Shown here: positions 1 through 45,759 of the stretch, piece by piece | Numbering within the stretch: position 1 is the first letter of the stretch | How the letters are laid out: each line of letters begins with the position of its first letter | From: Candidatus Eiseniibacteriota bacterium | GTDB taxonomy: Bacteria; ARS69 | Reading direction: 5' to 3' | Length of the DNA: 46,260 bases | Assembly: GCA_052390515.1 (NCBI GenBank) | Contig: JBQTGV010000093.1 | Location: forward strand, 1-46,260 | Notes under the pieces: model-generated | Database searches by the model: none | Seen by the model: the letters and a program-made list of their open reading frames with translations, nothing else | Told to the model about the DNA's origin: nothing | Made by a program: the position numbers and the translations under genes

Positions 1-1359
1 CTCTCCGCTGCGACCACCTCCTGCAACCCCGGCTCGGTACCGGTGCGGTGGCAGCTCGAGACCGTGAACGGTCCGCTCATCGAAGAGCACCCGTTCATCG
101 GGCTCGCCCTGTACCGGCTCGACGTGAACGGCCGGCTCGAGATGATCGGGAAGAACTGGATCAAGCACGGCTTCTTCGCCACCAATGCCAACGACTGCCT
201 CTACGGATGCACGGCCGCCCCGAACTCGTTGGGCGTCGGTTGCGCGGACACGTACGCGGTCGGCCACAACGGCGCGACGCTCTACCTCGGGCCCCGCGAA
301 GAAGTGAACCCTCACACGGGCGACTGGACCGCGTGCGGCTCGTACTTCGACGGCACGCCCGTGGACTGCAAGCGGAACTTCATGGGCGTCCCCAGCGAGG
401 TCGACCACCGGCTCGAGGCCTGGGACGAGGATCTCGGTCTGTCCGGCGCGCGCTATTTCTACGAGGGCGTCTACTACGTCCAGGGCGACGAGAACATCGA
501 CAACAACATCGGCTGGAAGGAATGCACCGTGACCTGGGCCAACCTCTGGGTCTTCAGCGACATCAACTCGACCCCCGGTTGGGCACAGAAGGACACGGAC
601 GGTGCGCTCATCGCGACGTGGGGCGATCAGCAAGCGGCCGTGCCCGCGGCCGCCGACGACGGCACACTGTGGTTCGCGGTCAAGGTCGATTCGCTCGGCG
701 GAGGCGAATGGCACTACGAGTACGCCGTCTACAACTACACCTCGAATCGGGGGCTCTTCTCCTTCGCGGTTCCCACGGGGACGGCGAACGTCACGAACGT
801 CGGCTTCCACGACGTCGACCACGACTCCTCGACCGACTGGACCCCGGTGATCGGTCCGGGCCTCGTCACCTGGAGCACGGACGACTGGGCGACGGACCCC
901 GCGGCGCCGGCCCTCGGCTACCAGTCGCTCTTCAACTTCCGCTTCGACGCCGACGCGCCGCCGGTCGTGTCGGACGTGCTCGGCGGGCTCTTCCTTCCCG
1001 GAATCGGCACGAACGTGTCCGCCTCGCTTCTCGCACCCGCGGCCGCATCGACCGCGGTGCTCCCGGAAGCGGCCGGAAGGAGCTCGTTCGGTCTGCTCGG
1101 CGTCGAGCCGAATCCCGCGCGCGGGGGCGCCAGGGTTTCCTTTTCGCTGGATCGGGACCGGGACGTCCGCCTCTCCGTCGTGGACGTGTCCGGCCGCACG
1201 CTCCGCGTCCTCCGCGAGGGAGCGGTGCCGGCGGGCCAAGCCTCGGCGGTGTGGGACGGGCTCGACGCCAATGGCGCGCGTGCGGCGGCCGGGGTCTACT
1301 TCTTCCGGCTCGAGTCCGACGGCGCGAGCCGGACCCGCAAGGTGACCCTGCTCCGCTGA
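1..1359 (+). CDS. Secreted-type protein with C-terminal FlgD-Ig/T9SS-CTD-like domain (5' truncated by window edge)
   Basis: Frame is open from base 1 (LSAATTSCNPGSVPVRW...). C-terminus 'VEPNPARG...VRLSVVDVSGRTLRVL...WDGLDANG..AAAGVYFFRL......RKVTLLR' is a typical FlgD-Ig/CTD. Cys-rich N-terminal region of unknown function. Confidence 0.75.
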   Translation, partial: LSAATTSCNPGSVPVRWQLETVNGPLIEEHPFIGLALYRLDVNGRLEMIGKNWIKHGFFATNANDCLYGCTAAPNSLGVGCADTYAVGHNGATLYLGPREEVNPHTGDWTACGSYFDGTPVDCKRNFMGVPSEVDHRLEAWDEDLGLSGARYFYEGVYYVQGDENIDNNIGWKECTVTWANLWVFSDINSTPGWAQKDTDGALIATWGDQQAAVPAAADDGTLWFAVKVDSLGGGEWHYEYAVYNYTSNRGLFSFAVPTGTANVTNVGFHDVDHDSSTDWTPVIGPGLVTWSTDDWATDPAAPALGYQSLFNFRFDADAPPVVSDVLGGLFLPGIGTNVSASLLAPAAASTAVLPEAAGRSSFGLLGVEPNPARGGARVSFSLDRDRDVRLSVVDVSGRTLRVLREGAVPAGQASAVWDGLDANGARAAAGVYFFRLESDGASRTRKVTLLR

Positions 1360-1389
1360 GCGGTCTTCTGCTACTGTGGGCGGCCACTC

Positions 1390-2637
1390 ATGGTCGTCGC
1401 CCCTTTCTTCGCCCTGCTCCTTGCCGCGTCCGCCACGGCGCCGGCGCATCCGCTCGCCGCGGTGCCGAAGGACCGCTCCACCGGCGAGCGTGCCCTGCGC
1501 GTCCCGGTGGCGATCGCGGAGCTGCCCTTCGCGTTGCTCGGTGACGGGCTCGAGCACACGATGTCGTTCGTCGAGCACAGGAACCTGATCGGCAAGGCGA
1601 GCCGCATCCCACCGTGGCTCGCCGAGCGCCACCTGATCGTCACCGGCGGAAGCGAGGGGGAGGGCGCCGGATTCGGGCTCGGCGTCGGCGCCTTCGCCGG
1701 CATCGGACAGGGGCAGATCGCCGGGATCACGCAGTGGACCGTGCGCGAGTACCAGACGCACAGCCTGCTCCTCCAGCAGGCGCTGGGTGAACGGACCGCG
1801 CTGCACGCCTGGGGGCGCTACCGGGTGCGCGCGCGCGACAACTTCTCCGGGGTCGGGCAGGGCACCAGCCCGGACGACCGCACGCAGTACCGCCAGGACG
1901 ACGTCGGGGGCGGGGCCGGTATCACCTTTCGACCGGCGTCGGTGCAGATCGCCGTGGACGGTGCCTGGAGCGACTTCCGCGAGCTCGAAGCACCCAGCGG
2001 CGGCGAGCATCCCGATACGATCGAAGAGTTCCCGGATCTTCCCGGAATCGGCGGGGCGAAGCTCGTTGCGGGGTCGGTGGCGCTCAGCTTCCCGGCGGTT
2101 CCGTACCGCGGCGGTCCCGCGCCGGAGAGCGCGGTCGTCGCCGGCGTGCAGGTCGCCCGGGACGCCGACGGATCCGCGTTCGGCTTCTCACGCTTCACGC
2201 TGTCGCTCTACCAGGCCGTGCCGGTATTCTGGGGCGATCGGGTGCTGGCCGCGCGCGTCCGAGGCTCCATCACGCAGCCGCACGCCGGCCGGGAGATCCC
2301 GTTCTGGCTCCTGGAGGAGCTCGGCGGGTCGAGCGGGCTGCGCGCGTACGATCCGCTCCGCTTCCGCGACAGGGACTCCGCGCTGCTGAACGTGGAGTAT
2401 CGCTTCCCGATCTGGGACATCGGCCTGCCGAGCGGCACGGCGATGGATGCGGTCTTCTTCTTCGACGCCGGCCTCGTCTCGCCCGCCATCCAGGACGACC
2501 TGGTGATGGACGACTTCAAGTCGGACGTCGGCTTCGGTCTCCGCGTCCGGAACCGCTGGGCGACGCTCTTGCGGATCGACGCCGCCTTCGCCGCGGACGA
2601 GACGCGCATCGAGTACCGGACCGGACGGGACTTCTGA
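1390..2637 (+). CDS. Omp85 (BamA/TamA-family) outer-membrane beta-barrel protein without obvious POTRA domains
   Basis: Signal peptide; 'LGGSSGLRAY..RFRD....LLNVEYRFPI', 'FFDAG', 'SDVGFGLR', terminal Phe; 415 aa. Confidence 0.8.
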   Translation: MVVAPFFALLLAASATAPAHPLAAVPKDRSTGERALRVPVAIAELPFALLGDGLEHTMSFVEHRNLIGKASRIPPWLAERHLIVTGGSEGEGAGFGLGVGAFAGIGQGQIAGITQWTVREYQTHSLLLQQALGERTALHAWGRYRVRARDNFSGVGQGTSPDDRTQYRQDDVGGGAGITFRPASVQIAVDGAWSDFRELEAPSGGEHPDTIEEFPDLPGIGGAKLVAGSVALSFPAVPYRGGPAPESAVVAGVQVARDADGSAFGFSRFTLSLYQAVPVFWGDRVLAARVRGSITQPHAGREIPFWLLEELGGSSGLRAYDPLRFRDRDSALLNVEYRFPIWDIGLPSGTAMDAVFFFDAGLVSPAIQDDLVMDDFKSDVGFGLRVRNRWATLLRIDAAFAADETRIEYRTGRDF

Positions 2638-4403
2638 TGCGGCGGATGCGGCGCCCCTTCGCCCGGATCCCGGTGCCGGCCGCGGGAGCTGCCGGCGGCT
2701 TCGCCCGGACCCTGCCGCTGCTGCTGGTCCTGGCCGCCGGCGGCTGCGGCACGTCCAAGGAGCTGCTCCTCGCCGGGCCACTGGCGGAGCTGCCCGACCG
2801 GGAGCCGGTGCCCGAGCCGAAGGCCGCGGCGCCGAACCAGTACTACGACTTCGCCGACAACTCGATCTTCCGCCAGATCCACTCCTGGTTCGATCTGCCG
2901 CGCCACGCGCGCTCGGTCTCCGGCGCGCCGAAGCAGGCGGCGAACGTGGACGCGTTCGACGAGGTGCCCAACTCCAGCTGGTTCACGAACCGCGGCGAAC
3001 GCCTCTCCCTGGAGGAAGCGCTGCGCGGCCCGGATCAGGGCGACGGCCCGGACCGGAGCGCCCCATGGAGGGTGCGCGGCGTCAAGACGCAGGGAGTCAC
3101 GCCGGGATTCCGCATCAAGGACGCTCGCGGCGACACGTATCTCCTGAAGTTCGACCCGCTGACCAATCCGGAGATGGCCTCGGGCGCCGAGATCATCTGC
3201 ACGAAGCTCGCGTGGGCGGCGGGATACAACACCGCGGAGAACTATCTCGTGTTCTTCGGCGCGGAGCAGCTCTCCCTCGAAGGCGACGTCACCCTCGTCG
3301 ACGAGTTCGGCCAGGAACGCACGCTCACCCGCGCGGACGTCGACGAGATCCTGGAGCGCGTGCCGCGCGCTCCGGACGGCTCGATCCGTGCGGTGGCGAG
3401 CAAGTTCCTCCCGGGCAAGCCGATGGGACCGTACTCGTACCTCGGCACCCGCGGCGACGACCCCAACGACCGCTTCCGCCACGAGCATCGCCGCGAGCTG
3501 CGCGGTCTCTACGTGTTCGCCGCGTGGGTCAATCACAACGACGTGCGCCGCATCAACTCGCTGGACATGTACGCGCCGGACGGCTACCTGCTCCACTACC
3601 TCATCGACTTCGGCGCGACGCTCGGCAGCGCCTCGGTCTGGGCGAACCTGCCGAGCGAGGGCTTCGAGTACCAGGCGGACTTCGCCGAGGCCGGAAAATC
3701 CCTGGTGACGCTGGGTCTTCGCCGCCGGCCCTGGCAGGGACACGTGCTGCGGGCCGACCCCGCCATCGGCTGGTTCGGCGTGGAGGGCTTCGATCCGGCG
3801 CGGTGGAAGCCGAATTACCCGAACCTCGCGTTCCAGCGTCTCACCGACCGCGACGGTTTCTGGGGAGCGAAGCAGGTGATGTCGCTCGACGACGAGAAGA
3901 TCCGCGGGATCGTGGCGCAAGCGAAGTACAGCGATCCGGAGGTGGAGCAGTTCCTGGCGGACACGCTGATTCGTCGCCGCGACCTCATCGGCCGCCACTG
4001 GTACGGCCGGGTCAACCCTCTGGACGGGTTCCGGATCGAAGCGAACGAGGACGGCGGACAGCGCGTCACGTGCATCGATCGGGCCGTCGAGGCGGGCTTC
4101 GAGCCGGCCGCAGGCTCCTCGTACCGGGCGGCGCTCTTCCACAACGACTTCGGCGGGCGGGACGAAGAGGTGCTCGGCGAGCGCCAGTCGGGGGAGCCGG
4201 AGGTGGTGCTCTCGCGGGAGGACCTCGCGCGCGTCGGCTCCTTCTGCGAAGAGCGGGACCTCGGCGAGGCCGAGGCGCGCCTCTTCTATGTGAAGATCCG
4301 GACGGCCCGCCCTTCGGGTGCCGAGCCGGGCGGATGGGTCAAGGCACACCTCCTCTGGACCGGCTCGGGCTTCGAGGCCGCAGGGATCGAGCGGCAGGAC
4401 TGA
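2637..4403 (+). CDS. Lipoprotein with atypical kinase-like motifs (HipA/PI3-4K/CotH-like fold)
   Basis: Lipobox LAAGGC; 'GVKTQGVTPGF', 'YLLKFDP', 'GAEII', 'NHNDVRRINS', 'YLIDFG'. Start overlaps the Omp85 stop (TGATG). Confidence 0.65.
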   Translation: MRRMRRPFARIPVPAAGAAGGFARTLPLLLVLAAGGCGTSKELLLAGPLAELPDREPVPEPKAAAPNQYYDFADNSIFRQIHSWFDLPRHARSVSGAPKQAANVDAFDEVPNSSWFTNRGERLSLEEALRGPDQGDGPDRSAPWRVRGVKTQGVTPGFRIKDARGDTYLLKFDPLTNPEMASGAEIICTKLAWAAGYNTAENYLVFFGAEQLSLEGDVTLVDEFGQERTLTRADVDEILERVPRAPDGSIRAVASKFLPGKPMGPYSYLGTRGDDPNDRFRHEHRRELRGLYVFAAWVNHNDVRRINSLDMYAPDGYLLHYLIDFGATLGSASVWANLPSEGFEYQADFAEAGKSLVTLGLRRRPWQGHVLRADPAIGWFGVEGFDPARWKPNYPNLAFQRLTDRDGFWGAKQVMSLDDEKIRGIVAQAKYSDPEVEQFLADTLIRRRDLIGRHWYGRVNPLDGFRIEANEDGGQRVTCIDRAVEAGFEPAAGSSYRAALFHNDFGGRDEEVLGERQSGEPEVVLSREDLARVGSFCEERDLGEAEARLFYVKIRTARPSGAEPGGWVKAHLLWTGSGFEAAGIERQD

Positions 4404-4445
4404 GGCACGCCCAGGGCGGCCGACGGCGCCTGTCGGGACGCGACA

Positions 4446-5786
4446 CTACGCCCCGGCGAGCTTCGCGTTCTCCCGCCCGATGGCCACGGCGACAGCCAGC
4501 CACGCCGCCACCAGCACGAGGTTCACGACCGCGAAGTGCGTCGTCTCGAACGACAGCACCGTGGTTCCGACGAGGACCAGCCCCGCGGAGAGAAGGTCTC
4601 CCGCGCGGACGAAGAACGTATCGATGGCCTGCTTCGCCTTGTACTTCTGCTCCCGCGTGGTCGGGAGGAAGAGCACGTTGCGCACCGTGTTCTGCAGCGA
4701 GTAGTCGGTGGCGTTCTCCGCGGTCTTGGCCCAGCGCACCACGGTGAGCACGGGATAGAAGGCGAGCAGGCAGTATCCCCCCAGCGCGATCACCGGCAGG
4801 AAGAGGAGCGCGCGCCGGACGCCGAGGTACTTGAGGATCCTGGATACCAGGAAGAGCTGCGTCAGCACGCCGACGACGTTCACCCAGAAGAAGAAGCCGG
4901 CGTAGAACTTCCCGATCGTGTCGCCGAGATCGAGGCCGCCGCTCGTGCCGGCCTCCACGCTCCGCGCAGCGGCCTCCCGGACGACGCGGCCCAGGATGTA
5001 CTCGCCGGTGGTGTTGACCCAGTTCAGGAAGAGCATCAGGAACGCGATCAGCAGCAGATAGCGGTTGCGCAGCACGAGCTGGAAGGCGCCGCCGGGCGGG
5101 ATCGGCTCGTCCGCCGTGCGCGCGCCCGTCTCGGCCACGGCCCTCGGGCGGTTGCGCTCCCTGGCCTCGATGACGTTGGTGATGGCGAGCGTCGCGGCCA
5201 GGAGCACCGCCGCCACGACCAGCATCTGCTCCACGCCGAGCGGCTCCACGAGGCGCTCGGCGATCCAGCTCCCCGCCACGGCGCCGAACGACGCGCCGAA
5301 CGCCACGAGAGCGAAGAGGCGCTTGCCCTGCTCCGGCGTGTACACGTCGTTGGCGAAGGACCAGAACTGCGCGATGACCATCAGATTGAAGATGCCGACC
5401 CACAAGAAGAACGCGACGCCGAGGTACGGCATGTCGGCCTTCGCCAGCAGGTAGAAGCCGGCGAGGCACGCGGCGAAGAAGAGCGTGACGATGTTGATGA
5501 GGCGCCGCCGCGGCACCCTCGACGCGAGCGCGGCGTAGGCCGGCACGACCCCGAGCAGCAGCAGCGCCTGGCCCGCGGCGGCGTAGCTCTTCACCTCCGC
5601 GCCGCCCCCGGCCAGGATCAGCGCTTCCCGCACGGGCTTCACGATGTAGTACGTGGTGAGGAGCAGGAACACGTTGAGCGCGAGGAGGAGCGCGGTGCCC
5701 GACTCCCCGGGCCGCACCTCCGTGAAGAGGCCGAGCACGCGCTCGAGCAAACCCTTCCTCGCGGCGACCGCGGGGTTTCCCGTCAT
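4446..5786 (-). CDS. Npt1/Npt2 (TLC, ATP/ADP translocase-like) MFS nucleotide transporter
   Basis: About 12 hydrophobic segments; 'YYIVKPVREAL', 'FWSFANDVY..EQGKRLF', 'KYKAKQAIDTFFVRAGD'. ATG 5786 is preceded by GGAGAG. Confidence 0.85.
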   Translation of the reverse strand: MTGNPAVAARKGLLERVLGLFTEVRPGESGTALLLALNVFLLLTTYYIVKPVREALILAGGGAEVKSYAAAGQALLLLGVVPAYAALASRVPRRRLINIVTLFFAACLAGFYLLAKADMPYLGVAFFLWVGIFNLMVIAQFWSFANDVYTPEQGKRLFALVAFGASFGAVAGSWIAERLVEPLGVEQMLVVAAVLLAATLAITNVIEARERNRPRAVAETGARTADEPIPPGGAFQLVLRNRYLLLIAFLMLFLNWVNTTGEYILGRVVREAAARSVEAGTSGGLDLGDTIGKFYAGFFFWVNVVGVLTQLFLVSRILKYLGVRRALLFLPVIALGGYCLLAFYPVLTVVRWAKTAENATDYSLQNTVRNVLFLPTTREQKYKAKQAIDTFFVRAGDLLSAGLVLVGTTVLSFETTHFAVVNLVLVAAWLAVAVAIGRENAKLAGA

Positions 5787-5819
5787 CGACTCTCCGTCGC
5801 CGCGTAGTATGCTGCGGCG

Positions 5820-7004
5820 ATGCATCCTTCTCGATTCCTGCCGTTCCGGTCAAGCCGGCTCTCGGCCGCGACGGTCACGCTCCTGCTGCTGGCCGCGCCC
5901 GCCGAAGCCTTTCGCTGGCCGTGGGAGACGGACCCCTGGCCGGACACCTCGCTCCGGCCGGTCGCGGCGCTGGACCATCCGGTGGTCGAGTCCGTCTTCC
6001 CGCCCGGCGCCGCCGCGTCGTATCGCTTCGCCGTGTTCGGCGACCAGCGTGCGCTGGCCGACGGTGAGTGGCAGCGGCTCGTGGAGAGGATCGCCGCGCT
6101 CCGGGATGACGAGCGCCCGGCCTTCGTCCTCGACACGGGCGACATCGTCGACGACGGATCCCACTCGGATCAGTTCTGGTGGCTGCGCGACATCCTCCAC
6201 CCCCTCCGCGACCTGCCCTATCTGGTAGGCGTCGGGAACCACGAGGTGGCCGATCACGGGGACCCGGCCGCGCGGGCGAACACCGCGGCCTTCCTGGCCT
6301 ACCTGGACCGGGATCTCTCGCCCGAGCGGCTCTGGTACCGCAAGGACATCGGCCCGGCCGCGTTCCTCTTCCTCGACACGAACGACTTCACGTATGGAGC
6401 GGACGGGGACCGGGACGAGTGTCCGCCGTCGGTGGAGCCGGCCACACGCGAGGGCCGGCAGGTCGCCTGGCTCCGGGAGCAGGCGGCCGATCTCGGCGCG
6501 AAGGACGCGCTGGTGATCGCCGTGATGCACCATCCGCTGGTGCAGTCCTCCGAGAAGCACCGCCCTTCCGCCCGCACGTTGTGGGCGTTCACCGACGGCG
6601 GGCAGACGCTCGTCGATCTGCTCGTGGACGCCGGAGTCGACGTCGTGCTCACCGGGCACACGCACACCTTCGAGCGCTTCCGTCTGGTGCGGGACGACGG
6701 CCGTTCCCTGCACCTCGTCAACATCTCGGGGCGCCCCCGCGACGCGTTCCTGTGGATCGGGGCCGGGGAGCGCCGCGCCCGGGACATCCGCGGCGAAGAG
6801 ACGGCGTTCCTCGAGGAGGCGGGCTGGACCGGGCTCGAGCGCTGGAAGATCACGCAGGAGGAACTGATGCGGAAGGAAGGCGAGGCCGACCAGTTCGCCC
6901 TCTTCTCCGTCGAGGAGGACGGCGGGCTCACCCTGGAGATGCGCTTCCTGGACGACGAGGAGCCCGACGGCATGAGGCACGGAGCACCGGTCCGGCTGCG
7001 GTAG
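5820..7004 (+). CDS. Secreted calcineurin-like metallophosphoesterase
   Basis: Signal peptide (..LLLLAAPAEA); motifs GDQR, GDIVDDG, GNHE, HHP, GHTH. Confidence 0.88.
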   Translation: MHPSRFLPFRSSRLSAATVTLLLLAAPAEAFRWPWETDPWPDTSLRPVAALDHPVVESVFPPGAAASYRFAVFGDQRALADGEWQRLVERIAALRDDERPAFVLDTGDIVDDGSHSDQFWWLRDILHPLRDLPYLVGVGNHEVADHGDPAARANTAAFLAYLDRDLSPERLWYRKDIGPAAFLFLDTNDFTYGADGDRDECPPSVEPATREGRQVAWLREQAADLGAKDALVIAVMHHPLVQSSEKHRPSARTLWAFTDGGQTLVDLLVDAGVDVVLTGHTHTFERFRLVRDDGRSLHLVNISGRPRDAFLWIGAGERRARDIRGEETAFLEEAGWTGLERWKITQEELMRKEGEADQFALFSVEEDGGLTLEMRFLDDEEPDGMRHGAPVRLR

Positions 7005-7025
7005 GGTCCCGCCTCGCGGAACGCT

Positions 7026-7093
7026 CGCCCCATCCGCGGGGCGCGGCGTCTGCGATGCAACGAACCAGCCCCGCCGACTCGTGCCGGCGGGGC
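7026..7093. terminator. Two GC hairpins between convergent genes, possible terminators
   Basis: CGCCCC/GGGGCG (7026-7043) and 9-bp stem GCCCCGCCG/CGGCGGGGC (7068-7093); U-tracts are weak. Confidence 0.4.
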
Positions 7094-7122
7094 CGTGAAT
7101 GCGTTCGGAAGTCCGGGCGAAG

Positions 7123-7914
7123 CTACTTGTAGCCGGCCTTCGTCTGGCCCCAGCTCCGCGTCTCGACCGACACGGGGTTCAGGCACTCGTACTCGATGTT
7201 CGTGAACGTCGCCGTCGACGACGCGTTGGGATTGCCGCCCTGCAGGAACGGCTGGTGGAAGCCGCCCACGGTCGCACTGTTCAGGATTCCCCACAGACCG
7301 TACGGAGGATCCTCCGCCGGGTTCCCCATGTCCAGGGCCAGGGCGCCGCTGGAGTACGTGTTGCTTCCGTACGTCACGACGTACTCGACCGTGCCCGGGC
7401 TCGACGAGCTCAGGCCGTTCGGGTGATAGATCATCTCCAGATGGATCGACGTGCCCTTCGCGTAAACGACACCGTGGTTCGCGGTGAACGAATAGAACGG
7501 CATCCGGCCGCCGAACACGGCGACCTCGCCGTCGGTCGTGCGGCAGTTGATCCGGCCGTCGCCCACGAACCACCACGGCGCGATGTTGATCCCCGCCTCA
7601 CCCTCGGTCGCCCCGGAGATGACCAGGTCGACGGCGAAGCGGAACTCGGAGCTGTTGGCGAACAGAAGGTTGGTCGCGCCGTCGTCCGAGAACTTCCAGA
7701 CGTGCAGGTTGGCGAACCCGCCGCAGCTCAGGTTGCTGTCGGTCGTCTGGACCATCATGGGGTAGTTGTTCACCGACGAGAAGCTCGACGTCGGGCAGTC
7801 GTTGAAAATGCGCGGGGTGATCGCGACGCTGTTGACGATCGGCGTCGCGGAGGCACCCACCGCGAACGCCATCGCTGCCGTCGCGAACGCGCACCTGGTC
7901 ACGATTCGCTTCAT
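7123..7914 (-). CDS. Secreted hypothetical protein (263 aa) with C-terminal SWGxxKxxY tail
   Basis: ATG 7914 with AAGGAG upstream; signal peptide MKRIVTRCAFATAAMAFAVGASA; beta-rich body; ends VSVETRSWGQTKAGYK. Confidence 0.8.
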   Translation of the reverse strand: MKRIVTRCAFATAAMAFAVGASATPIVNSVAITPRIFNDCPTSSFSSVNNYPMMVQTTDSNLSCGGFANLHVWKFSDDGATNLLFANSSEFRFAVDLVISGATEGEAGINIAPWWFVGDGRINCRTTDGEVAVFGGRMPFYSFTANHGVVYAKGTSIHLEMIYHPNGLSSSSPGTVEYVVTYGSNTYSSGALALDMGNPAEDPPYGLWGILNSATVGGFHQPFLQGGNPNASSTATFTNIEYECLNPVSVETRSWGQTKAGYK

Positions 7915-8033
7915 GGTTGCACTACTCCTTGGGCAAGATGTGATCGAATCGGTCTCCTCCATGAGGGACCGCGTCCTTACATGGTATTGCGTTCTCTCAC
8001 CTCCTCCCGTCCGCCCCGGCGCGGCCTTCCACT

Positions 8034-9635
8034 TCAGCGCACCAGGACGAGCTTCCGGGCGACGCTCCGGCCGCCCGCTTCGAGTCGATAGACATAGACG
8101 CCGCTGGCGAGCCCACTCGCCCGCCAGGTCGTCCTGTGCTCTCCCGCCGCCACCTCTCCGTCCACCAGGCGTCGGACGAGCCTTCCCTGCACGTCGTACA
8201 GGGAGAGCGTCGCTCGTCCGGCGGCCGGTACACGGAACGAGATCTCGGAGATGCCGCGCACCGGATTCGGCACCGGTTCGCCCAGCAAGAGCCCACCGAG
8301 CCCGCCGGAGACTGCCGGCGCCCCGGTCGCGGGACCGAAGCCAGCCACGGCCAGCCCGTGTTGCAGGTCCGCGTTCTGCATGAAGCGGCTCCAAATGGAC
8401 CCGGTCAGGTAATTCTCGATCATCAGTACGATAGGCCCCTGGTCGATGCCCAGGTAGTCCGTGTCGTACCACGCCGCTGACGGATTGAAGGCGTCCTTGT
8501 ACCCGTAGGCGCCCCACAGCAGCGGGTAGTTGTCGTACATGTTGTGCAGCACCGGGATCACGACCTCCGGCGCGAAGGGGATCGAGCTGGCCGGCGCCGT
8601 CGGGGTGAGCGTGCCGTTGTCGGTTTGCGCCGGGGGGGCGCCGTGCGCGGCGTACCCCAGGAAGGGATCGTCCGAGGCGGTCAGGCCCCACAGATCGGCC
8701 CCGTATCCCGTGAATCCGCCCGGATTGGCGATGCAGTACTCGCGCTGGGCCAACGTCGCGCGTCGCGAGTTCTCGAAGTACGTGATCCCCTTGCTGGTCA
8801 TGTACAGGTCCTGCACGAGGCGGAAGTCGATCCAGCAGTGCGAGTACTGGTGCCCGAAGAGCGGCGGGAAGATCAAGTAGGTGTACCCGTACTGCGTTGA
8901 CCAGTTGTAGCCGCTCGTCCAGGTGAACCACATGCTCGACGCGCCGAGCGGCGGATGAGTCGGAGACCCGAACGCGAGCAGGTACATGATCATCGCCTCG
9001 TTGTAGCCGACCCACGTGCCGAATCCGGAGAAGCCGGTCTCCGGCTTCCACCCCATGCGGATGCCCACGCCGGAAGCGCGGGCGAACTCCCAGTCGGTGC
9101 GCCGGTAGAGTGAATCGGCCAGCGCGCGGACCTCGACGTCCAGGGAGTCCGCGGTCGAGAAGTACTGCTTCGCGTCCAGGACGCCGGCGAGCAGCAGCGC
9201 GGTATCGATGGTCGAGAGTTCGCTCGTCCAGGTCCGCGTGGCCGTGCTCATGTCCAGGAAGTGGTAGAAGAACCCTTTGTGGCCGATCGTGCCGCTCGTC
9301 GCCGTCCCTTGAGGACCGTTCCAGAACGTGTCGAGCGTGGTCAGCACGCGGTCGCGGCCGGCCTCACGCGTGATCCAGCCGTGGTCGATCGCCACGCAGA
9401 TCGCGGAGAGCCCGAATCCCACCGCCGCGATGCTGCACGGCGATCCCGGCGTGCTGCGGTCCTTGACCAACCCGTTCGCAGGGTTCGCCTCGGTCCAGAA
9501 GTACTGGAAGCCCTTGTACTGCAGGCTGTCCAGCAAAGCCGCCGTCTCCAGCGCGCGCGCTTCGCCCGTGGTGGCCGAGAGCGCCACGGTCAGCGTCCCC
9601 GCGGCGATCCACCGCCGTCCCGTTCCGGATCTCAC
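8034..9635 (-). CDS. GH144-like ('glucoamylase family') putative endo-beta-1,2-glucanase with FlgD/CTD domain
   Basis: GTG 9635 overlaps upstream stop (GTGA); 'GFFYHFLD', 'YNEAMIMYLLA.GSPTHP', 'PLFGHQYSH.WIDFR', 'YFENSRRAT', 'WGLTASD', 'LGIDQGPI..MIEN'; CTD ends RKLVLVR. Confidence 0.85.
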   Translation of the reverse strand: MRSGTGRRWIAAGTLTVALSATTGEARALETAALLDSLQYKGFQYFWTEANPANGLVKDRSTPGSPCSIAAVGFGLSAICVAIDHGWITREAGRDRVLTTLDTFWNGPQGTATSGTIGHKGFFYHFLDMSTATRTWTSELSTIDTALLLAGVLDAKQYFSTADSLDVEVRALADSLYRRTDWEFARASGVGIRMGWKPETGFSGFGTWVGYNEAMIMYLLAFGSPTHPPLGASSMWFTWTSGYNWSTQYGYTYLIFPPLFGHQYSHCWIDFRLVQDLYMTSKGITYFENSRRATLAQREYCIANPGGFTGYGADLWGLTASDDPFLGYAAHGAPPAQTDNGTLTPTAPASSIPFAPEVVIPVLHNMYDNYPLLWGAYGYKDAFNPSAAWYDTDYLGIDQGPIVLMIENYLTGSIWSRFMQNADLQHGLAVAGFGPATGAPAVSGGLGGLLLGEPVPNPVRGISEISFRVPAAGRATLSLYDVQGRLVRRLVDGEVAAGEHRTTWRASGLASGVYVYRLEAGGRSVARKLVLVR

Positions 9636-10705
9636 TCCTCGTCTCCTTCCCGCCGCTCCCGCTCCGCGTCCCTCTCCAGCTCCAGGGCCAGCGTCAGCCG
9701 ATGCGTGCCGTCCAGGTGGTCGTGGTTCGCCCAGGCGTAGTCCACGCGGAACTCCCGCTCGCCGAGGCCTCCGCGAAGTCCGGTACCGAAGGTCCAGCCG
9801 AGCTCCGAATCCTGCTGGAAGAGAGTCTGGTAGCCGGCGCGGAGTGCCAGCGCCTCGTTCCATGTCCACTCCACGCCCGTGTTCAGCGTCTCCGAGTTGT
9901 CCGCGGGGTGCAACGCGTCGAGCAGCACCAGCAAGCGGCTACCCGGGCTCGTCTCGTACGGAGCCGCCAACCCCACGCGGAACCCGATGGGCACCGGGAA
10001 CCGGTCGGTGAACTGCTCCGCGGGGAGCGCGCTGTTGTCGCCGAACGCGTCCGGATCGGCGTCGAACAGGATGGCCAGGTCCCTGCCGGAAAACTCCGAC
10101 CGCGTCCCCATGTTGGAGATGCACGAACCGATCCGGATGCCGCCCACACCGAGCTGGTAGACCGTGCCCACGTTGAACACCACGGTGGTCTGCACCGAGT
10201 GCCAGATCCGCTCGCGTACGTAGTCCACCTGCACGCCCGCCGCGAACCGGCTGGTGATGTGGCGCCCGAACCCCAGCCCGACGGCGACGTCGCCGACGGT
10301 GTAGCGCTCGCCGGTGCCGAGGGGACTCTCCACCGTGCGCACGTCGATCTCGCCCGAGCTCAGCGAGGTCAGGCTGCCGAACAGCGTGCCCCAGTTCGAC
10401 AGCGGCACCGCGACCGCCGCGTAGTCGTAGGAGATGTCCACGAACCACACCGCGTGCGTGAACTGCGCGGACGCGGCATCGAGCGCGCCGAGCGCGCCGG
10501 GATTGAAGTACACCGACTCGATGCCTTCGTACAGGCCCACCGCGGCGTTGCCCAGCGCCGCGGTGCGCGCGCTCGGTTCGATCCCCAGGAACTGCGCGAT
10601 GGTCGTCCCCGCCTTGCTCTGCGCCGCAGCCGGCGGCACCGCCACGAGCTCCGGCAGAACGAGGGCCGTGAGCAGGAACAGGATGCGCGTCGTTCGTCGG
10701 TTCAT
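9632..10705 (-). CDS. PorV/PorQ-family outer-membrane beta-barrel protein
   Basis: Signal peptide then 'GTTIAQFLGIEPSARTAALGNA...SVYFNPGAL', 'LALRAGY', 'RVDYAW'. Confidence 0.8.
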   Translation of the reverse strand: MNRRTTRILFLLTALVLPELVAVPPAAAQSKAGTTIAQFLGIEPSARTAALGNAAVGLYEGIESVYFNPGALGALDAASAQFTHAVWFVDISYDYAAVAVPLSNWGTLFGSLTSLSSGEIDVRTVESPLGTGERYTVGDVAVGLGFGRHITSRFAAGVQVDYVRERIWHSVQTTVVFNVGTVYQLGVGGIRIGSCISNMGTRSEFSGRDLAILFDADPDAFGDNSALPAEQFTDRFPVPIGFRVGLAAPYETSPGSRLLVLLDALHPADNSETLNTGVEWTWNEALALRAGYQTLFQQDSELGWTFGTGLRGGLGEREFRVDYAWANHDHLDGTHRLTLALELERDAERERREGDEE

Positions 10706-14002: not shown

Positions 14003-16675
14003 CTAGCTCTCCTCCTCGGGTTCGGGGGAAGATCCGAATCGGATCCCCAACTCGATCCGGCGCGGCGCGTAGAAGCGCGTCGGATCCGCGAGGGACACCT
14101 TGTCGGCCTCGGGGAACCTCGAGTAGTACGGACTCCCCGTGCTGGGGAACACGAAGCCGTTGAAGAACGTCTCGTCCAAGGCGTTCAGCGCGCGGCCGAA
14201 CACGCTCACGTCCGAGCCCATCCACGTTCCCAGCTCCCGCTCCGCCCGCACGTCGAGGACCACGCCCACCGGCTTGCGGTCCGAGTTGGCGTCCAGGCCG
14301 AAGCCGAAGCCCGACTCCAGCGTCGGCGTGTACGGCTGTCCGCTGGCCACGCGGAGGACCGCGCTCGCCGAGTACGGCCCCGGCTCCGCCAGCGAAACCG
14401 TGGCGTTGAAGGTGTGTCGCTGGTCCCAGTTGAAGGGCACGAGCCGGGGGCGAGGATCCTCGCCCGCGGATGCGCGCGTGGCCGTCTCGCGCGGATCGCT
14501 GGCGTTCCCCAGCGCCTGCTGCCATGTGTAGTCGACCGCGACCGACAGCGCCCCGAACCGACGGTGGTCGAGCGCCAGCGTGACGCCGAAGACGCTCCCG
14601 AAGTCGACGTTGGTGAGGCGGGCGTACTCCGCGCCGTTGTACGTGGTGATGAACTCGACGCCGAGCAGATCACGGATGTCCTTGTAGAACGTGGTCACGT
14701 CGACACCGAAGTCCTCGCTCAGCGCCTGCTTGTAGCCGATCTCGTACTGCGTGGTCCGCTCCGGCTCCACGTCCGGATTCCCCATGACGCCGTAGTCGAC
14801 CGTCCCCGCCTGCAGGTCGTTCAGCACGGAGTAGTCCGCGTTCGTGAACATCGCCCCGATGGATGGGTACTGCCGGAAGTGCCCGTACGCGACGTGGATG
14901 GCGGCCTCGTCCCCGATCGGATAGGCCAGCCCGAGGCGCGGCGAGACCGACACCTTCCTGGACGTCTTGACCTGGGCGGACGGGGTCACACCGGCGATCG
15001 CGTTGGCGGGGTTGGACAGGTCTCCGGGGATCCACGCGCGCGCATCGAAGTAGTCGAGTCGGAGCCCGCCCCGCAGCCGGAAGTCGCTCCACTCCAGCTG
15101 GTTCTGGGCGAACCCGGCGAGGACCACCGGGCGATACTCCCGCGGTCCGGGGAAGTCCGGCGGCTCGTCCACGTGCCGGACCAACGTGAGCACGCCGTCC
15201 TCCGTCGTCTGGGTGAGGTGGCCGGGTGTCCCGAACGCCACTCGAGGGAGGTGCAGCTCGACGCCGGTCTTCACCTGCTGCGTGGAGGTCAGCTGGCTGA
15301 CGAGATTCGCCTTCGTCCGGATGCCGCGTGTCCGCTGCTCGAAGCGCGAGAAGCTGACGCCCTGCACGTACGCGCCCAGCTCGTAGGTCGGATCACCCAC
15401 CGGCGGTCCGGCTGCGTCGTACCGCGAATCGAACAGATCCTCGTACTTGTAGTCGTGGTACACGAAGTAGTCGTGGCGGAAGCTGGCCTCCACGAACGAG
15501 TCCTCGCTGAGGGTCTGGGTCAGATCGAAGCCGTGAATCGCCGCGAACCCGTGCTGTTCGGTCAGGCCGTCCGGGTTGAGCCGGAAGGCGTAGTTGGCGC
15601 CTCTCCCATCGAACTTCTCCAGCAGGGCCTGGTAGCTGAGCTTGGTCCGGGGCAGCGAGCTGTTGGTGATCTTGATCGCGCCGGACCACTCCCGGAGGAA
15701 ACCGAGCGGGAGCTCCTCGCCGTCGCCGGTGCCCGCGAAGACCTTGTTCTCGAAATCGGAAACGTCGGTGGGAACGAAGGTCCGCGTGCCGTAGACGTAG
15801 TCGTCGAAGTGGTAGTAACGGATGCTGGCGAGGTACACGGTATCGGAGACGGGAGCCGGGCCGCTCGCCGCGAACTGGTAGTTCTGGATGTCCCCCAGGT
15901 GGAGATCCGTGTCGGTCAGGCGATCGTCGTTGTCGGGAAACACGAAGCTCCCGCCGAAGACCTCGCCGCCCCACTCGAACTCGGACGAACCGTCCTTGAG
16001 CACCACGTTCACCACGCCGCTCATCGCCTGGCCGTACTCGGCGTCGAACGTCCCGCTGATGACCTGCACTTCCTGCAGCAGCGAGCGGTCCAGCGTGAGG
16101 CTCGCGCTGTTGTCGTACGGGTTGTTGATGCTGATCCCGTCCACCTGGTACTGGACCTCTCCGATCCTCCCACCGCGGAAGTGACCTTCGACCACGCCTG
16201 CCTGGAGGTTGACGACGTCCTCCAGCTCCTGCACGGGGAGCTTCTCGATCTCCTCGCGGTCCAGGCGGGCCATGCTGCTGGTGAGGCTCAAGTCCACCGG
16301 CGGGCGCTCCGCGGTGATGATCAGCTCCTCCGCTTCGATCGGCGCCACCCCGATCTCCAGGTCCAGCCACGTCGTGTTGTCAGCGGAGACGCTGACACCT
16401 CGAACCGTGAGCGTCTCGTAGCCGACGCGGCGGACCGTCACGTCGTAGGTGCCGGGAGGGATGCGTAGCACCGTGTACCTGCCGTCCTGCGCGGTGTTCG
16501 CGCCGAAAGGCTGGCCGACCAGCACGACGGTCGCCGCGTGCACGGGCCGCTTCTCGTCGTCCTGCACACGGCCGGTGAGCTTTCCGGTCGTGCCCGCCGG
16601 GGCGGACCCGGGAAGGAGCCCGCCCGCGGCGATCGCCAGCACGATCCCGACGCGATGCAGCCCGCTACACGGCAT
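14003..16675 (-). CDS. TonB-dependent receptor with N-terminal carboxypeptidase-regulatory-like domain
   Basis: 'GTTGKLTGRV.D', plug 'HFRGGR..EVQYQVDG', 'GTFDAEYGQAMSGVVN', 'SPRLGLAYPI', 'GNPDVEPERT..YE.G', 'PRRIELGIRF'. Confidence 0.92.
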   Translation of the reverse strand: MPCSGLHRVGIVLAIAAGGLLPGSAPAGTTGKLTGRVQDDEKRPVHAATVVLVGQPFGANTAQDGRYTVLRIPPGTYDVTVRRVGYETLTVRGVSVSADNTTWLDLEIGVAPIEAEELIITAERPPVDLSLTSSMARLDREEIEKLPVQELEDVVNLQAGVVEGHFRGGRIGEVQYQVDGISINNPYDNSASLTLDRSLLQEVQVISGTFDAEYGQAMSGVVNVVLKDGSSEFEWGGEVFGGSFVFPDNDDRLTDTDLHLGDIQNYQFAASGPAPVSDTVYLASIRYYHFDDYVYGTRTFVPTDVSDFENKVFAGTGDGEELPLGFLREWSGAIKITNSSLPRTKLSYQALLEKFDGRGANYAFRLNPDGLTEQHGFAAIHGFDLTQTLSEDSFVEASFRHDYFVYHDYKYEDLFDSRYDAAGPPVGDPTYELGAYVQGVSFSRFEQRTRGIRTKANLVSQLTSTQQVKTGVELHLPRVAFGTPGHLTQTTEDGVLTLVRHVDEPPDFPGPREYRPVVLAGFAQNQLEWSDFRLRGGLRLDYFDARAWIPGDLSNPANAIAGVTPSAQVKTSRKVSVSPRLGLAYPIGDEAAIHVAYGHFRQYPSIGAMFTNADYSVLNDLQAGTVDYGVMGNPDVEPERTTQYEIGYKQALSEDFGVDVTTFYKDIRDLLGVEFITTYNGAEYARLTNVDFGSVFGVTLALDHRRFGALSVAVDYTWQQALGNASDPRETATRASAGEDPRPRLVPFNWDQRHTFNATVSLAEPGPYSASAVLRVASGQPYTPTLESGFGFGLDANSDRKPVGVVLDVRAERELGTWMGSDVSVFGRALNALDETFFNGFVFPSTGSPYYSRFPEADKVSLADPTRFYAPRRIELGIRFGSSPEPEEES

Positions 16676-16699: not shown

Positions 16700-18604
16700 T
16701 CACTTCACCAGCACCGTCTTCCCCGAGAGCGTGGCGCGGACCGTTCCCGTCTGCGGATCGGCGAGCCGCACGCGGTAGAGATACACGCCCGCGGCGCGGC
16801 CCCGCCCGTCGAAGAGAACCTGCCGCACCCCCGGCCCCTGCACACCCAGCGCGCGGCTGTCGACCAGCCGTCCGCCGACGTCGAAGAAGTCCAACAGCAC
16901 TTGGCTGGGTTCGGGCAGCGAGTACTCGACGCCGGGAAGCGTCGAAGGACTCGAGAACGGCCGGGCGAACGCGTACGCGCCGGCGGCGGCGTCGGCCGCG
17001 AACGGATCCACGCCGATGGCGGTGGTGGGCGCGAGATAGGCCCACACCGGGCAGCACTCACCCTCGTACTGGCGGAACCACCATGTGCGCGTGCCGTAGC
17101 TGTCCGTCGTGGGGATGAACGAGTCACCATCGAGGTGATTCACGCCCAGGAAGAGGGAGCCGTCGCCGAGACCCGACGGATAGCCGAACCCGGTGAGGTC
17201 CAGCGCCAGCTCGGCGGTGTATCCCTGGTCGGGAACCGTCCCCAGCGTGTCCACCGTCGTGCCGCTCTTGAGCGCCAGCGCCACGAGCGCGTCCCCCGAG
17301 ACGACGTAGGACGGCAGCTCGTCCTGCGCGTCCGCCGCCCCGGCTTGGCTAACCCGGAAGCTGAGTCGATGCGTCAGCAGCTGGTGATCGAGCGCACCGC
17401 GCACCACGCGATCGGTCAACGTGATGAGGAAGCCGTCCCAGCGGTCGAAGGACGGATGGAATTGCACGACCCGGTCGCTGACGTCGAACGCCATGTACAG
17501 CCAGTCGCCGATGAAAGTCATCTTCACGGTCGCGTCGGCGGGGTCGGCCACGAACGCGGTGGCCATGTTGAGCGGCGGCTGGAACTGGCCGGAGCGGAAG
17601 GGACCGTCGCCCGGGTACGAGGCGCGAAGCGCGGCGTCGTCCCAGCGGATGTCGAACGTGTAGACGTCGGGGTTGCTCCAGATGGCGTCGGCCAGGGAGC
17701 CGTTGATCGTCGGCGGTGGATCCGTGACCTCCGGAATGACGAGCTCGGCGCCCACGATCGGGACCATCCCGGAGTTCACCGTGACGTCGGGCCGCGCGTG
17801 GATCTTGACCTCGTGGTACCACCCGACGTTGCCCCAGGGCGACTGGAACCACACCCGGTCGGTGTGAAACTTGAGTCCGGCGCCGAAGGGCCAGAACCAG
17901 TCGCAGTCGTAGATCTGAATGTTCCATTCCACGATGTCCCCGCCGGGCTGGGTGACGTCGTAGCCCATGGGCGTCAGATTGAAACGCATCTCCACCGTGT
18001 AACCCTGGTCGATGACGGAGTCGTCGTTGGACAGACCCTGGACGACCGTCACCGCGTCCCAGTTCGCGATCTGCGTGGAGTCGCGAGGCGAGCCGGGGGG
18101 CGACGTCGCCCACTTGCCGATGAAGCTCGGCGCCTGGCCGGGCACCTGCGGATCCGGCGTGGTCTCGTACCACCAGGAGTAGAAGTACTCCGCGGGGGGT
18201 TTCGGGAACGTCGTGTCCGCGTGGTCCTTGATCGCCATGAGGAATCCGTCGAAGCGGTTGAACAGCTCCGAGCCTCCCACCGACGAGTCACGGACCGTTG
18301 CGCCGAGGTACAGCTGATTTCCGTGCACCAGGAACTTGAGCGTGGTGTCCGTGGAGTCGGTGCCGACGAACAGCCCTGCCTCGACCTTGTACCCGCTGCC
18401 GGGGATGCCGGCGTCGATCCCGTAGCGCACGTTCACCGACTCCGCCTTCGCCCAGGAGGATTCGTTGAGTACTCCGTCGAGCGTGATCGGCGCGGATGCG
18501 AAGCGTGCCCAGACGACGTCTTCGCGCGCCGGTGCGGCGAACGAGGGCCCCACCCCGGTGATGAGCGCGCCGAGCAGCAGCGCGCCGGCGACTGGCAGTC
18601 TCAT
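16700..18604 (-). CDS. Secreted protein with tandem CBM9/DOMON-like domains and FlgD/CTD
   Basis: ATG 18604 overlaps LacI stop (ATGA); signal peptide; repeated 'ITLDGVLNESSW' / 'TINGSLADAIW' and 'DQGYT.E'; CTD 'DVGGRLV...AAGVYLYRV...GKTVLVK'. Confidence 0.7.
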   Translation of the reverse strand: MRLPVAGALLLGALITGVGPSFAAPAREDVVWARFASAPITLDGVLNESSWAKAESVNVRYGIDAGIPGSGYKVEAGLFVGTDSTDTTLKFLVHGNQLYLGATVRDSSVGGSELFNRFDGFLMAIKDHADTTFPKPPAEYFYSWWYETTPDPQVPGQAPSFIGKWATSPPGSPRDSTQIANWDAVTVVQGLSNDDSVIDQGYTVEMRFNLTPMGYDVTQPGGDIVEWNIQIYDCDWFWPFGAGLKFHTDRVWFQSPWGNVGWYHEVKIHARPDVTVNSGMVPIVGAELVIPEVTDPPPTINGSLADAIWSNPDVYTFDIRWDDAALRASYPGDGPFRSGQFQPPLNMATAFVADPADATVKMTFIGDWLYMAFDVSDRVVQFHPSFDRWDGFLITLTDRVVRGALDHQLLTHRLSFRVSQAGAADAQDELPSYVVSGDALVALALKSGTTVDTLGTVPDQGYTAELALDLTGFGYPSGLGDGSLFLGVNHLDGDSFIPTTDSYGTRTWWFRQYEGECCPVWAYLAPTTAIGVDPFAADAAAGAYAFARPFSSPSTLPGVEYSLPEPSQVLLDFFDVGGRLVDSRALGVQGPGVRQVLFDGRGRAAGVYLYRVRLADPQTGTVRATLSGKTVLVK

Positions 18605-45081: not shown

Positions 45082-45759
45082 GTGGACGTCGATCTCCAGG
45101 TGAAGCTCGCGGTCTACCGCGCCGCAGCCGAGAACGGCCGGCCACCCGCGCCGAGCCGGGTCGCGTGGGAGGTGGGCGTCGACCTCGACGAGCTTCGCCT
45201 CTCCTACGCGCGGCTCCGCGAGCGACGGCTCCTCGTGCTCGAGCCCGACGGCCTCTCCATCCACATGGCGCCGCCCTTCTCCGGCGTCCCCACGCAGCAT
45301 CTCGTGCGCGTGGACGGCGTGGACTATCACGCGAACTGCGCCTGGGACGCGCTGGGGATCCCCGCGGCGCTGCACCGCGCGGGCACCGTCGTCTCCCGCT
45401 GCGAGCAGTCCCGCGAACCGCTGCATCTCGAGATCGGACCCGACGGTCCCGAGCCGTCGACCTGGCTCTTCCACTGCGTCGTTCCCGCCGCGCGGTGGTG
45501 GGAGGACATCGTCTTCACCTGAGGCAACATGCTCTTCTTCCGGTCGGAAGAGCTCATCGACTCGTGGTGCGCGGCGGGGAGCCGGCCGCGTCGCCCCTCG
45601 GTCCGGATGGATCAGCTCTGGCGAATGGCCGTCACCTGGTACGGAACGCGGCTCACGCCGGAGTCCCGGCGGCCCGCCCCCGGCGAGATGCGTGGGATCT
45701 TCGCCGCCATCGGTCTCGAGGGCGAATTCTGGGATCCGGAGTCGGACGCCTTCCGCTGA
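45082..45759 (+). CDS. MerB-like (organomercurial lyase family) protein, 225 aa, probable selenoprotein (TGA 45520-45522 = Sec147)
   Basis: ORFs 45082-45522 and 45529-45759 are in the same frame, separated only by TGA-GGC-AAC. 'ANCAWDAL' matches MerB C96/D99, 'SRC' matches C117, and 'VFT*GNMLFFRSEE' matches the MerB 'SFCCHVHFFAS' region. Confidence 0.8.
45531..45553 (+). promoter_or_regulatory. Putative bacterial SECIS hairpin
   Basis: GCUC-UUC-UUCC-GGUC-GGAA-GAGC begins 9 nt after the UGA. The apical GGUC lies at +23..+26 counting U of UGA as +1, close to the GGUC position in the E. coli fdhF SECIS. Confidence 0.65.

Follow-up and report, generated by a model that had tools for sequence, protein, structure and literature searches.

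The DNA analyzed here, referred to below as the window, is the whole stretch of 46,260 nucleotides of contig JBQTGV010000093.1 (assembly GCA_052390515.1) from a Candidatus Eiseniibacteriota bacterium, with a G+C content of approximately 70%. Near its start lies a group of four genes encoding an outer-membrane barrel, a lipoprotein with kinase-type motifs, an inner-membrane carrier, and an exported phosphoesterase (Table 1). The linkage of these four genes is real and old, and it was examined here for what it may reveal about their joint function, for which phosphorylation of targets outside the cytoplasm is considered below.

An earlier account of this DNA, made from the letters and the translated open reading frames (ORFs) and referred to as the sequence-only reading, had described four tightly packed genes at these positions. 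The ORFs and their coding signature, which was strong in all four frames with a G+C content at third codon positions (GC3) of 0.91–0.96, confirmed this arrangement. Direct reading also verified the coupling of the barrel and lipoprotein genes as a TGATG overlap, with the barrel TGA at 2635–2637 and the lipoprotein ATG at 2637–2639. The lipoprotein stop codon (4401–4403) faces that of the carrier on the minus strand (4446–4448) across 42 bp, which agrees with the convergence within about 40 bp that had been noted. The longest carrier ORF, starting at 5825, would overlap the phosphoesterase ATG at 5820. Since the second methionine codon, at 5786, is preceded by GGAG and agrees with the N-termini of the orthologues in related genomes, this start was preferred, and the distance between the divergent starts is then exactly the 33 bp reported earlier. 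The same divergent carrier/phosphoesterase pair was present in three related genomes with spacers of 33–69 bp. No terminator was called by a consensus scan in the spacer between the convergent genes, and across positions 1200–7300 no promoter or terminator signal exceeded those of shuffled sequences.

Table 1. Genes and spacers of the four-gene group, in window coordinates
Feature	Position	Strand	Details
Predicted POTRA-less ("noNterm") Omp85-family outer-membrane barrel	1390..2637	+	415 amino acids; Pfam Omp85; N-terminal hydrophobic signal-like segment
Lipoprotein with catalytic motifs of kinase type, from a large unannotated family	2637..4403	+	588 amino acids; lipobox Cys37
Spacer between the convergent lipoprotein and carrier stops	4404..4445		42 bp, read directly
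Predicted NTT/TLC-family MFS carrier	4446..5786	-	about 446 amino acids from the likely start; longest ORF to 5825 = 459 amino acids
Spacer between the divergent carrier and phosphoesterase starts	5787..5819		33 bp, read directly
Exported purple-acid-phosphatase-like metallophosphoesterase	5820..7004	+	394 amino acids; signal peptide ending AEA

The barrel matched the Pfam family Omp85 (PF01103) with an E value of 4.2e-9 and 36.8 bits (cut-off 24) over residues 260–400 only, and it scored 58.6 bits against NCBIfam NF047779, under the cut-off of 200. The Pfam scan returned no POTRA family, and the sequence ahead of the barrel region amounts to only about 100 residues of low conservation. In the available part of a published account, Omp85 proteins are characterized by the L6 loop motif [VI]RG[YF] and the barrel-wall motif [FG]xDxG (PMC4490367). 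In an alignment of 27 orthologues (A2), the arginine of the L6-type motif LRG[YF] (R318) was invariant and G319 was conserved in at least 90% of the sequences, the window protein itself reading LRAY. F357 and G361 of the FxDxG motif, which reads FFDAG, were likewise invariant, and the C-terminal phenylalanine was kept. The above-threshold PF01103 match together with the L6-type and FxDxG motifs thus supported the proposed Omp85 nature of the barrel, and on these features the first gene is classed as encoding a POTRA-less ("noNterm") Omp85 barrel. Such noNterm Omp85 proteins were reportedly described by Heinz and Lithgow in 2014.

The second gene encodes a lipoprotein for which scans of the 588 residues against Pfam and NCBIfam returned no family. 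Its export is supported by the lipobox LAAGGC, recognized by its sequence pattern, whose Cys37 was retained in at least 90% of the homologues; in the homologue of genome G003, a plain signal peptide replaces the lipobox. A word-seeded search gave at least 1996 homologues, of which the 120 listed were without a Pfam domain and the few named in their source were hypothetical proteins. In an exhaustive profile search, the number of cluster representatives was 4124 at E ≤ 1e-3 and fell to 3007 and 1528 at E ≤ 1e-10 and E ≤ 1e-30, respectively. When each species was represented by a single genome, relatives were found in at least 589 species genomes, and those listed included Latescibacterota, Krumholzibacteriia, Zixibacteria, Calditrichia, Acidobacteriota, Nitrospirota, Ignavibacteria, Gemmatimonadota, and others. 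Shorter relatives carrying a Pfam annotation were also sought, and none of the 64 matches had a family.

Across 129 sequences of the lipoprotein family, D302, N307, and H320 were invariant, and K171, D173, E179, E185, D310, and D324 were each conserved in at least 90%. The motifs follow one another as YLLKFDP ... WVNHNDVRRINSLD ... HYLIDFGATLGS, and the order K171, D302/N307, D324 matches that of the N-lobe lysine, the catalytic Asp...Asn loop, and the DFG-like aspartate of kinases, a pattern by which these residues may be assigned the corresponding roles. Per-member Pfam scans at a loose threshold covered first 29 members, with HipA_C in six and HipA_2 in five, and then 85 further members, with HipA_C in 14 and HipA_2 in 33, all of these matches being sub-threshold. 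HipA_2 and HipA_C were the commonest families found in this way, followed by TrmI-like_N (10/85); their best values were E 0.0011–0.0013 and E 0.0043, respectively, and the matches joined the start of the HipA profiles to protein residues 132–226. When the Atlas was queried with a stored homologue of the lipoprotein, the closest named clusters, all of them kinase families, were Fam20C, HipA_2, LepB_N, and PI3_PI4_kinase, with scores of 0.77–0.86 that lie below 0.9 and are leads only. A search of five genomes for PF20613 at E ≤ 10 gave no match. Overall, we consider a kinase-like fold of the lipoprotein likely, and the protein is probably also catalytically active, a claim that we grade somewhat lower than the fold.

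Among public proteins, P0185–P0188 are four paralogues of about 1150 amino acids in which a kinase-like half is joined to a C-terminal extension of about 600 amino acids that belongs to no known family. Both the Asp/Asn loop of catalytic type and the DFG-like aspartate are replaced in P0185, which resembles a pseudokinase.

The carrier matched Pfam TLC (PF03219) with 48.6 bits (cut-off 21; E 7e-13) and MFS_1 with E 9.3e-12, and a hydropathy scan gave 11 segments. Comparison with the solved ADP,ATP carrier 9j3n by phmmer (E 1.6e-9) aligned the FAN[DE]...KR and K.K.K..ID stretches, which were invariant or nearly so in 20 module-neighbouring carriers. The description of the protein as ATP/ADP-translocase-like therefore held at the family level; its membership in the NTT/TLC family is supported by these matches, and nucleotide transport is predicted. 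In a quick tree, the window-type carrier and a second short type formed sister groups, apart from most HEAT-fused carriers. Since the genome of the window encodes ATP synthase subunits and PurE, import of host ATP or energy parasitism is unlikely. Away from the module, contig C213 of the same genome (L086) carries in a row, at 3615–10096 on the minus strand, genes for an NTT-HEAT fusion of 1109 amino acids, a 325-amino-acid protein with two stretches binding cyclic nucleoside monophosphates (cNMP), and an MscS-type channel.

The fourth gene product carries a signal peptide and matched Pfam Metallophos (PF00149) with E 2.7e-15, which upheld the proposed secreted phosphoesterase. In an alignment of 18 relatives (A7), all five metallophosphoesterase (MPE) motifs were invariant (D75, G107-D108, G139-N140-H141, H237-H238, and G279-H280-x-H282), and the profile of this alignment matched mammalian purple acid phosphatase (PAP) with E 4e-33 and plant PAP with E 2e-22. 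The tyrosine ligand in the GDxxY motif is what makes these enzymes purple. It is absent from the window protein, which reads GDIVDD, and within the alignment a tyrosine occurred at this position only in L059 and L002; the enzyme is therefore called PAP-like and not a true PAP. The MPE partners that neighbour the module in other loci bear signal peptides or lipoboxes as well.

Conservation of the arrangement was assessed by tblastn with the window proteins on the best 80 lipoprotein-related loci, a barrel being counted as adjacent if it was encoded on the same strand and its end was offset by −200 to +600 bp from the start of the lipoprotein gene. By this definition, 74 of the 80 loci, from many phyla, had a barrel gene immediately before the lipoprotein gene. 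The barrel of L069 (Pfam Omp85) lies downstream of the lipoprotein gene, L009 and L041 have less than 250 bp of DNA upstream of it, and no barrel was seen in L017, L050, and L063, the upstream gene in L063 encoding a pseudouridine synthase. For the remaining neighbours, ORFs of at least 90 amino acids from the 80 loci and from the first 16 kb of the window (81 sources) were clustered. Counts refer to the 78 sources with a lipoprotein ORF, which omit L018, L049, and L071, where this ORF was unclustered, and in brackets to the full-flank subset (48 sources), in which both flanks reach 5 kb or more. A TLC-type gene occurred in 36 of the 78 (27/48), an MPE gene in 21 (13/48), a PAP2 phosphatase gene in 16 (13/48), an exported phosphoesterase of any type in 34 (25/48), and a carrier together with a phosphoesterase in 24 (20/48). 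Five loci (L001, L007, L010, L013, and L051) showed the co-directional order barrel–lipoprotein–MPE–TLC.

The sequence-only reading had proposed to check its idea by co-occurrence and fusion analysis of the four families. Co-occurrence elsewhere was strong, as the above counts indicate, so that the lack of it, named in that reading as a ground for refutation, was not observed, and the searches for fusions among the barrel, lipoprotein, carrier, and phosphoesterase families found none. Open frames of more than 1000 amino acids that seemed to join barrel and kinase in G006 and G009 were rejected as fusions because the barrel gene has its own stop codon. The convergent carrier and divergent phosphoesterase mean that the four genes are not one transcript in the window, as would be expected of four unrelated envelope genes standing side by side by chance. 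The linkage nevertheless recurs across phyla in differing orders and orientations and the arrangement is therefore not a matter of chance; this conservation contradicts an accidental neighbourhood, which we regard as next to impossible. The upstream gene at 1–1359, which encodes a FlgD-Ig/T9SS-tail protein, and the downstream beta-glucan genes were rejected as parts of the module because they are not conserved neighbours.

Other recurrent neighbours in the 81 sources were a long TLC-HEAT fusion, a small cNMP-binding protein (15), PAS/GAF histidine kinases (13), and a single-domain response regulator (12). Nitrospira-type loci among L014, L016, L019, L020, L025, and L039 carry, at about 8500–9700 and directly downstream of the lipoprotein gene, a gene for a protein of about 290 amino acids with a signal- or lipoprotein-like N-terminus; the L016 member (cluster 15), the only one scanned, matched no Pfam family.

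The exchange of one phosphatase type for the other bears on the nature of the substrate. Lipid phosphates are common substrates of PAP2 family members, and a PAP2 gene fills the slot of the MPE gene in 13 of the 48 full loci, so that the kinase-fold enzyme of the module might act in the outer membrane on a lipid or glycan, for example lipid A or another envelope glycolipid, with the PAP2 or MPE enzyme as the matching phosphatase and envelope remodelling, in place of protein phosphorylation, as the outcome. PI3_PI4_kinase and LepB_N, although leads only, are also among the nearest named Atlas clusters. However, a crude hydropathy scan showed a single hydrophobic segment, at the N-terminus, in most of the neighbouring PAP2 proteins, which look soluble rather than integral, no lipid A or lipopolysaccharide genes were found among the recurrent neighbours, and the sub-threshold HipA-type matches favour protein kinases. 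We therefore judge this variant distinctly improbable.

The window's own phylum was sampled by 12 genomes, all from one family, nine of which contained the lipoprotein family. Orthologous carriers with at least 70% identity were found in G000, G002, G003, G005, G006, G007, G009, and G011, and a fragment of one in G008, while an orthologous phosphoesterase was present in nine of the 12. All four genes were adjacent in G000, G003, G006, and G009. G007 likewise had them together except for a gap of 2.4 kb, and gene order and orientation varied among these genomes. G005 carries barrel, lipoprotein, and carrier genes without the MPE gene, G011 has the divergent carrier–phosphoesterase pair and the barrel–lipoprotein pair on separate contigs, and G002 (82% complete, 650 contigs) has the carrier and the phosphoesterase and no lipoprotein match. 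None of the four genes was found in G001 (100% complete). In G004 (73% complete), no orthologue of the four was found, the only matches being a weak partial one to the barrel and TLC-family ones of 23–26% identity.

A second phylum, that of the L038 genome, was represented by 121 genomes, and the lipoprotein family was present in 35 of them. A TLC-family match of any kind occurred in 54 of the 121, that is, in 32 of the 35 genomes with the lipoprotein family versus 22 of the 86 without it. The short carrier type, defined by an E value of about 2e-78 or lower and an open frame below 650 amino acids, was found in 22 of the 35 genomes with the lipoprotein family and in none of the other 86. Among the 22, it directly followed the lipoprotein gene on the same strand in 18; in G044 the distance between the two was 9 kb, and in G122 they were on separate contigs. 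Since related genomes are not independent, the counts for this phylum are descriptive and do not amount to a statistical test.

Some genomes carry more than one copy of the lipoprotein gene. Copies paired at a distance of 1–6 kb were observed in G126 (C1:926418-931095), G118 (C23:10440-17979), and G094 (C1:2525280-2529435), and second copies 9–65 kb away in G076, G101, G103, and G110. The carrier beside the lipoprotein gene was matched in at least two pieces at G121:C1:1115332-1116637, G079:C1:6087623-6089571, and G092:C12:43887-46026, where a frameshift, decay, or an assembly error is possible.

The unequal constancy of the partners could be taken to mean that the barrel translocates the downstream lipoprotein to the cell surface, where it would act on external targets, with the carrier and the phosphatase only loosely linked to this pair. 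The barrel pair is indeed more constant (74/80) than the carrier (27/48) or the phosphoesterase (25/48), and noNterm Omp85 genes of Leptospira are followed by lipoprotein genes, with a transport role proposed in the accessible part of that report (PMC11358297). Against this, the short carrier is confined to genomes that contain the lipoprotein family, where it usually forms an operon with the lipoprotein gene, the four genes are mostly co-present or co-absent in the window's phylum with G002 and G005 as exceptions, and a kinase at the surface would be without a nucleotide supply. Thus, surface display or secretion by the pair appears quite improbable.

The same genes might also serve the scavenging of nucleotides or organophosphates, in which a kinase-like nucleotide pocket of the lipoprotein would capture external nucleotides, the phosphatase would trim them, and the carrier would import nucleotides or phosphorylated products, with the barrel as a passage or anchor. 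Phosphatases of the purple-acid and PAP2 types typically act as extracytoplasmic phosphomonoesterases and have a role in scavenging, and all parts of the module are located in the envelope. Characterized NTTs import nucleotides, as stated in the available part of the literature on the family (PMC5381601). Nevertheless, the catalytic-type residues Asp302 and Asn307 are invariant, which would be unnecessary for mere binding, and the barrel retains Omp85 lid-type motifs and represents no known type of solute pore. The genome also produces its own ATP and purines, and the recurrent neighbour clusters include signalling genes and no phosphate-uptake genes. The confinement of the short carrier to genomes with the lipoprotein family is in itself compatible with either scavenging or phosphorylation. 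Taken together, the strictly conserved residues of catalytic type and the limited occurrence of the short carrier weigh against both scavenging and surface display, and scavenging is regarded here as rather unlikely.

From the observed genes, export signals, motifs, and linkage, we infer the functional steps of a widespread envelope module for nucleotide-driven phosphorylation outside the cytoplasm, a proposal that we hold tentatively and at somewhat less than even confidence. Its core would consist of the POTRA-less Omp85 barrel and an exported enzyme, here a lipoprotein, which is probably active and of an atypical kinase fold (HipA/PI3-4K/Fam20-like). Barrel and lipoprotein would most likely form an outer-membrane complex facing the periplasm, their binding being suggested by gene linkage. 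The NTT/TLC-type inner-membrane carrier would most likely supply the nucleotide co-substrate by moving ATP out and ADP back, and the phosphorylated target might be a protein, a lipid, or a glycan. The exported PAP-like enzyme would strip the phosphate again, a PAP2 phosphatase taking its place in other lineages. Every partner other than the carrier is exported, with a lipobox or signal peptide on the lipoprotein and the phosphoesterase and the barrel in the outer membrane. Since an exported enzyme with an intact nucleotide-dependent site needs nucleotides, and the sole linked inner-membrane protein belongs to the family of ATP/ADP exchangers, the carrier may feed the envelope kinase, and ATP supply to this kinase is thus a well-motivated inference. 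In its most specific form, the proposal would have the carrier export ATP and retrieve ADP, perhaps with phosphate, so that a periplasmic kinase/phosphatase cycle gates or powers a process at a private Omp85 barrel; we consider this version conceivable but doubtful.

Several observations weigh against an envelope phosphorylation module. None of the lipoprotein scans gave a kinase-family profile match at threshold. When the lipoprotein family was compared by hhalign with a thin six-sequence HipA alignment, P values of 0.089 and 0.17 were obtained, which were not significant, concerned the N-lobe only, and were close to the 0.42 of an unrelated control. Sequence and profile searches of the PDB (phmmer, hmmsearch) with the lipoprotein and its profiles gave chance-level rows or none. 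On the side of the carrier, the model for nucleoside triphosphate/diphosphate exchangers (TIGR00769) was matched with 44 bits and its cut-off of 387.2 was not reached, so that the carrier is to be regarded as a distant NTT/TLC member. The characterized NTTs form another clade, comprising importers or exchangers of parasites and plastids, as far as the available text describes them (PMC5381601). Moreover, a carrier is missing within 7 kb in about half of the related loci, and the short carrier lies more than 1 Mb from the lipoprotein gene in G023 and G068. Finally, a lipoprotein carried by the barrel to the cell surface would be out of reach of periplasmic ATP.

Accordingly, the central claims of the sequence-only reading were sustained in part. 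For the exported kinase-like lipoprotein, export was supported, and a kinase fold was favoured by the conserved motifs and the sub-threshold HipA_2/HipA_C matches, with no significant profile match. For the phosphorylation system as a whole, co-occurrence, export, and the assignment to the Omp85 and NTT/TLC families stood, and the significant kinase match and the gene fusions did not materialize.

The rest of the window contains genes that are unrelated to the module. A neighbourhood of the beta-glucan utilization type at 8034–9869, 14003–16675, 18601–19617, 19923–23438, and 31007–32524 comprises two PF10091 "glucoamylase" proteins, one of them with a C-terminal sorting domain of the type IX secretion system (T9SS) type, a TonB-dependent receptor with CarboxypepD_reg, a LacI regulator, and a GH94 phosphorylase. 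The proteins encoded at 1–1359 and 8034–9869 end in FlgD_ig/Por_Secre_tail domains, which points to a sorting signal for type IX-like secretion in this lineage. A protein with a MerB (alkylmercury lyase) domain at 45082–45522 adjoins a short-chain dehydrogenase, and ExbBD and a radical-SAM enzyme are encoded elsewhere in the window.

In agreement with the sequence-only reading, to whose author no described system of this composition was known, none was found in the literature searched, the coverage of which excludes supplementary files, possibly with neighbourhood data. Searches for an Omp85 protein with a kinase-like lipoprotein and periplasmic ATP found no papers, and those for secreted kinases, Fam20C, periplasm, and HipA gave nothing relevant. 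The module is thus without a described counterpart in that literature, and extracytoplasmic phosphorylation is the best available reading of it, albeit an unproven one. To our knowledge, the periplasm is taught to lack ATP. Known outer-membrane processes draw on the energy of the inner membrane via trans-envelope machines. The module suggests a different solution, in which an exported kinase-type enzyme with its own barrel is combined with a nucleotide-carrier-type transporter and an exported phosphatase. If the ATP-fuelled cycle in the periplasm exists, energy and signals could reach the outer membrane without a trans-envelope machine. The module would also offer a testable function for noNterm Omp85 proteins and for the uncharacterized NTT genes of free-living bacteria to which the accessible text on NTTs refers (PMC5381601).

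Parts of the module resemble several known systems. In Leptospira, noNterm Omp85 paralogues are followed by lipoprotein genes, for which adhesin or transport functions were suggested and left untested in the accessible part of that report (PMC11358297). Like the module, these loci combine a POTRA-less barrel with a lipoprotein gene immediately downstream, and function is predicted in both cases. The downstream lipoproteins of Leptospira, as far as the same portion of the source describes them, are adhesin-like (Big/integrin, DUF1566), whereas that of the module has kinase-like motifs, and the barrel–lipoprotein pair is associated there with a transporter of the nucleotide-carrier type and a phosphatase. 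Free-living bacteria carry uncharacterized NTT and NTT-HEAT(-cNBD) genes, and the available text of the corresponding study contains no link of NTTs to Omp85 barrels or exported kinase-like proteins, the word "operon" occurring there once, for a cNBD gene (Major, Embley & Williams, 2017; PMC5381601). The module carrier shares with NTT/TLC transporters the Pfam TLC family and the hallmark motifs, and NTT-HEAT and cNMP-binding genes adjoin the module in related loci. It differs from classic NTTs as a distant member of the family in a free-living host whose genome has its own ATP synthase.

POTRA, the TPS-domain, and DUF560 define TpsB/TpsA two-partner secretion and Slam translocators. In these systems, as in the module, the barrel gene adjoins the gene of the exported partner, although Pfam found no POTRA, TPS-domain, or DUF560 in the barrel or lipoprotein of the module. 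With atypical kinases of the HipA and PI3/PI4-kinase type, the lipoprotein shares a similar order of motifs, namely an N-lobe lysine, a catalytic Asp...Asn loop, and a DFG-like aspartate. HipA is a cytoplasmic toxin with an antitoxin, whereas the lipoprotein family is exported, measures about 580 amino acids, has unassigned conserved N- and C-terminal regions, and gave no match at threshold. Eukaryotic secretory-pathway kinases of the Fam20C type are supplied by an ATP carrier of the endoplasmic reticulum and Golgi and opposed by a secreted purple acid phosphatase. The module differs from this system in its bacterial envelope location and its Omp85 partner, with homology limited to Atlas leads of 0.80–0.86 to clusters with 11–22% Fam20C members. 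Both would nevertheless follow the same logic, in which a kinase beyond the cytosol is combined with a membrane ATP carrier and an exported PAP-type phosphatase.

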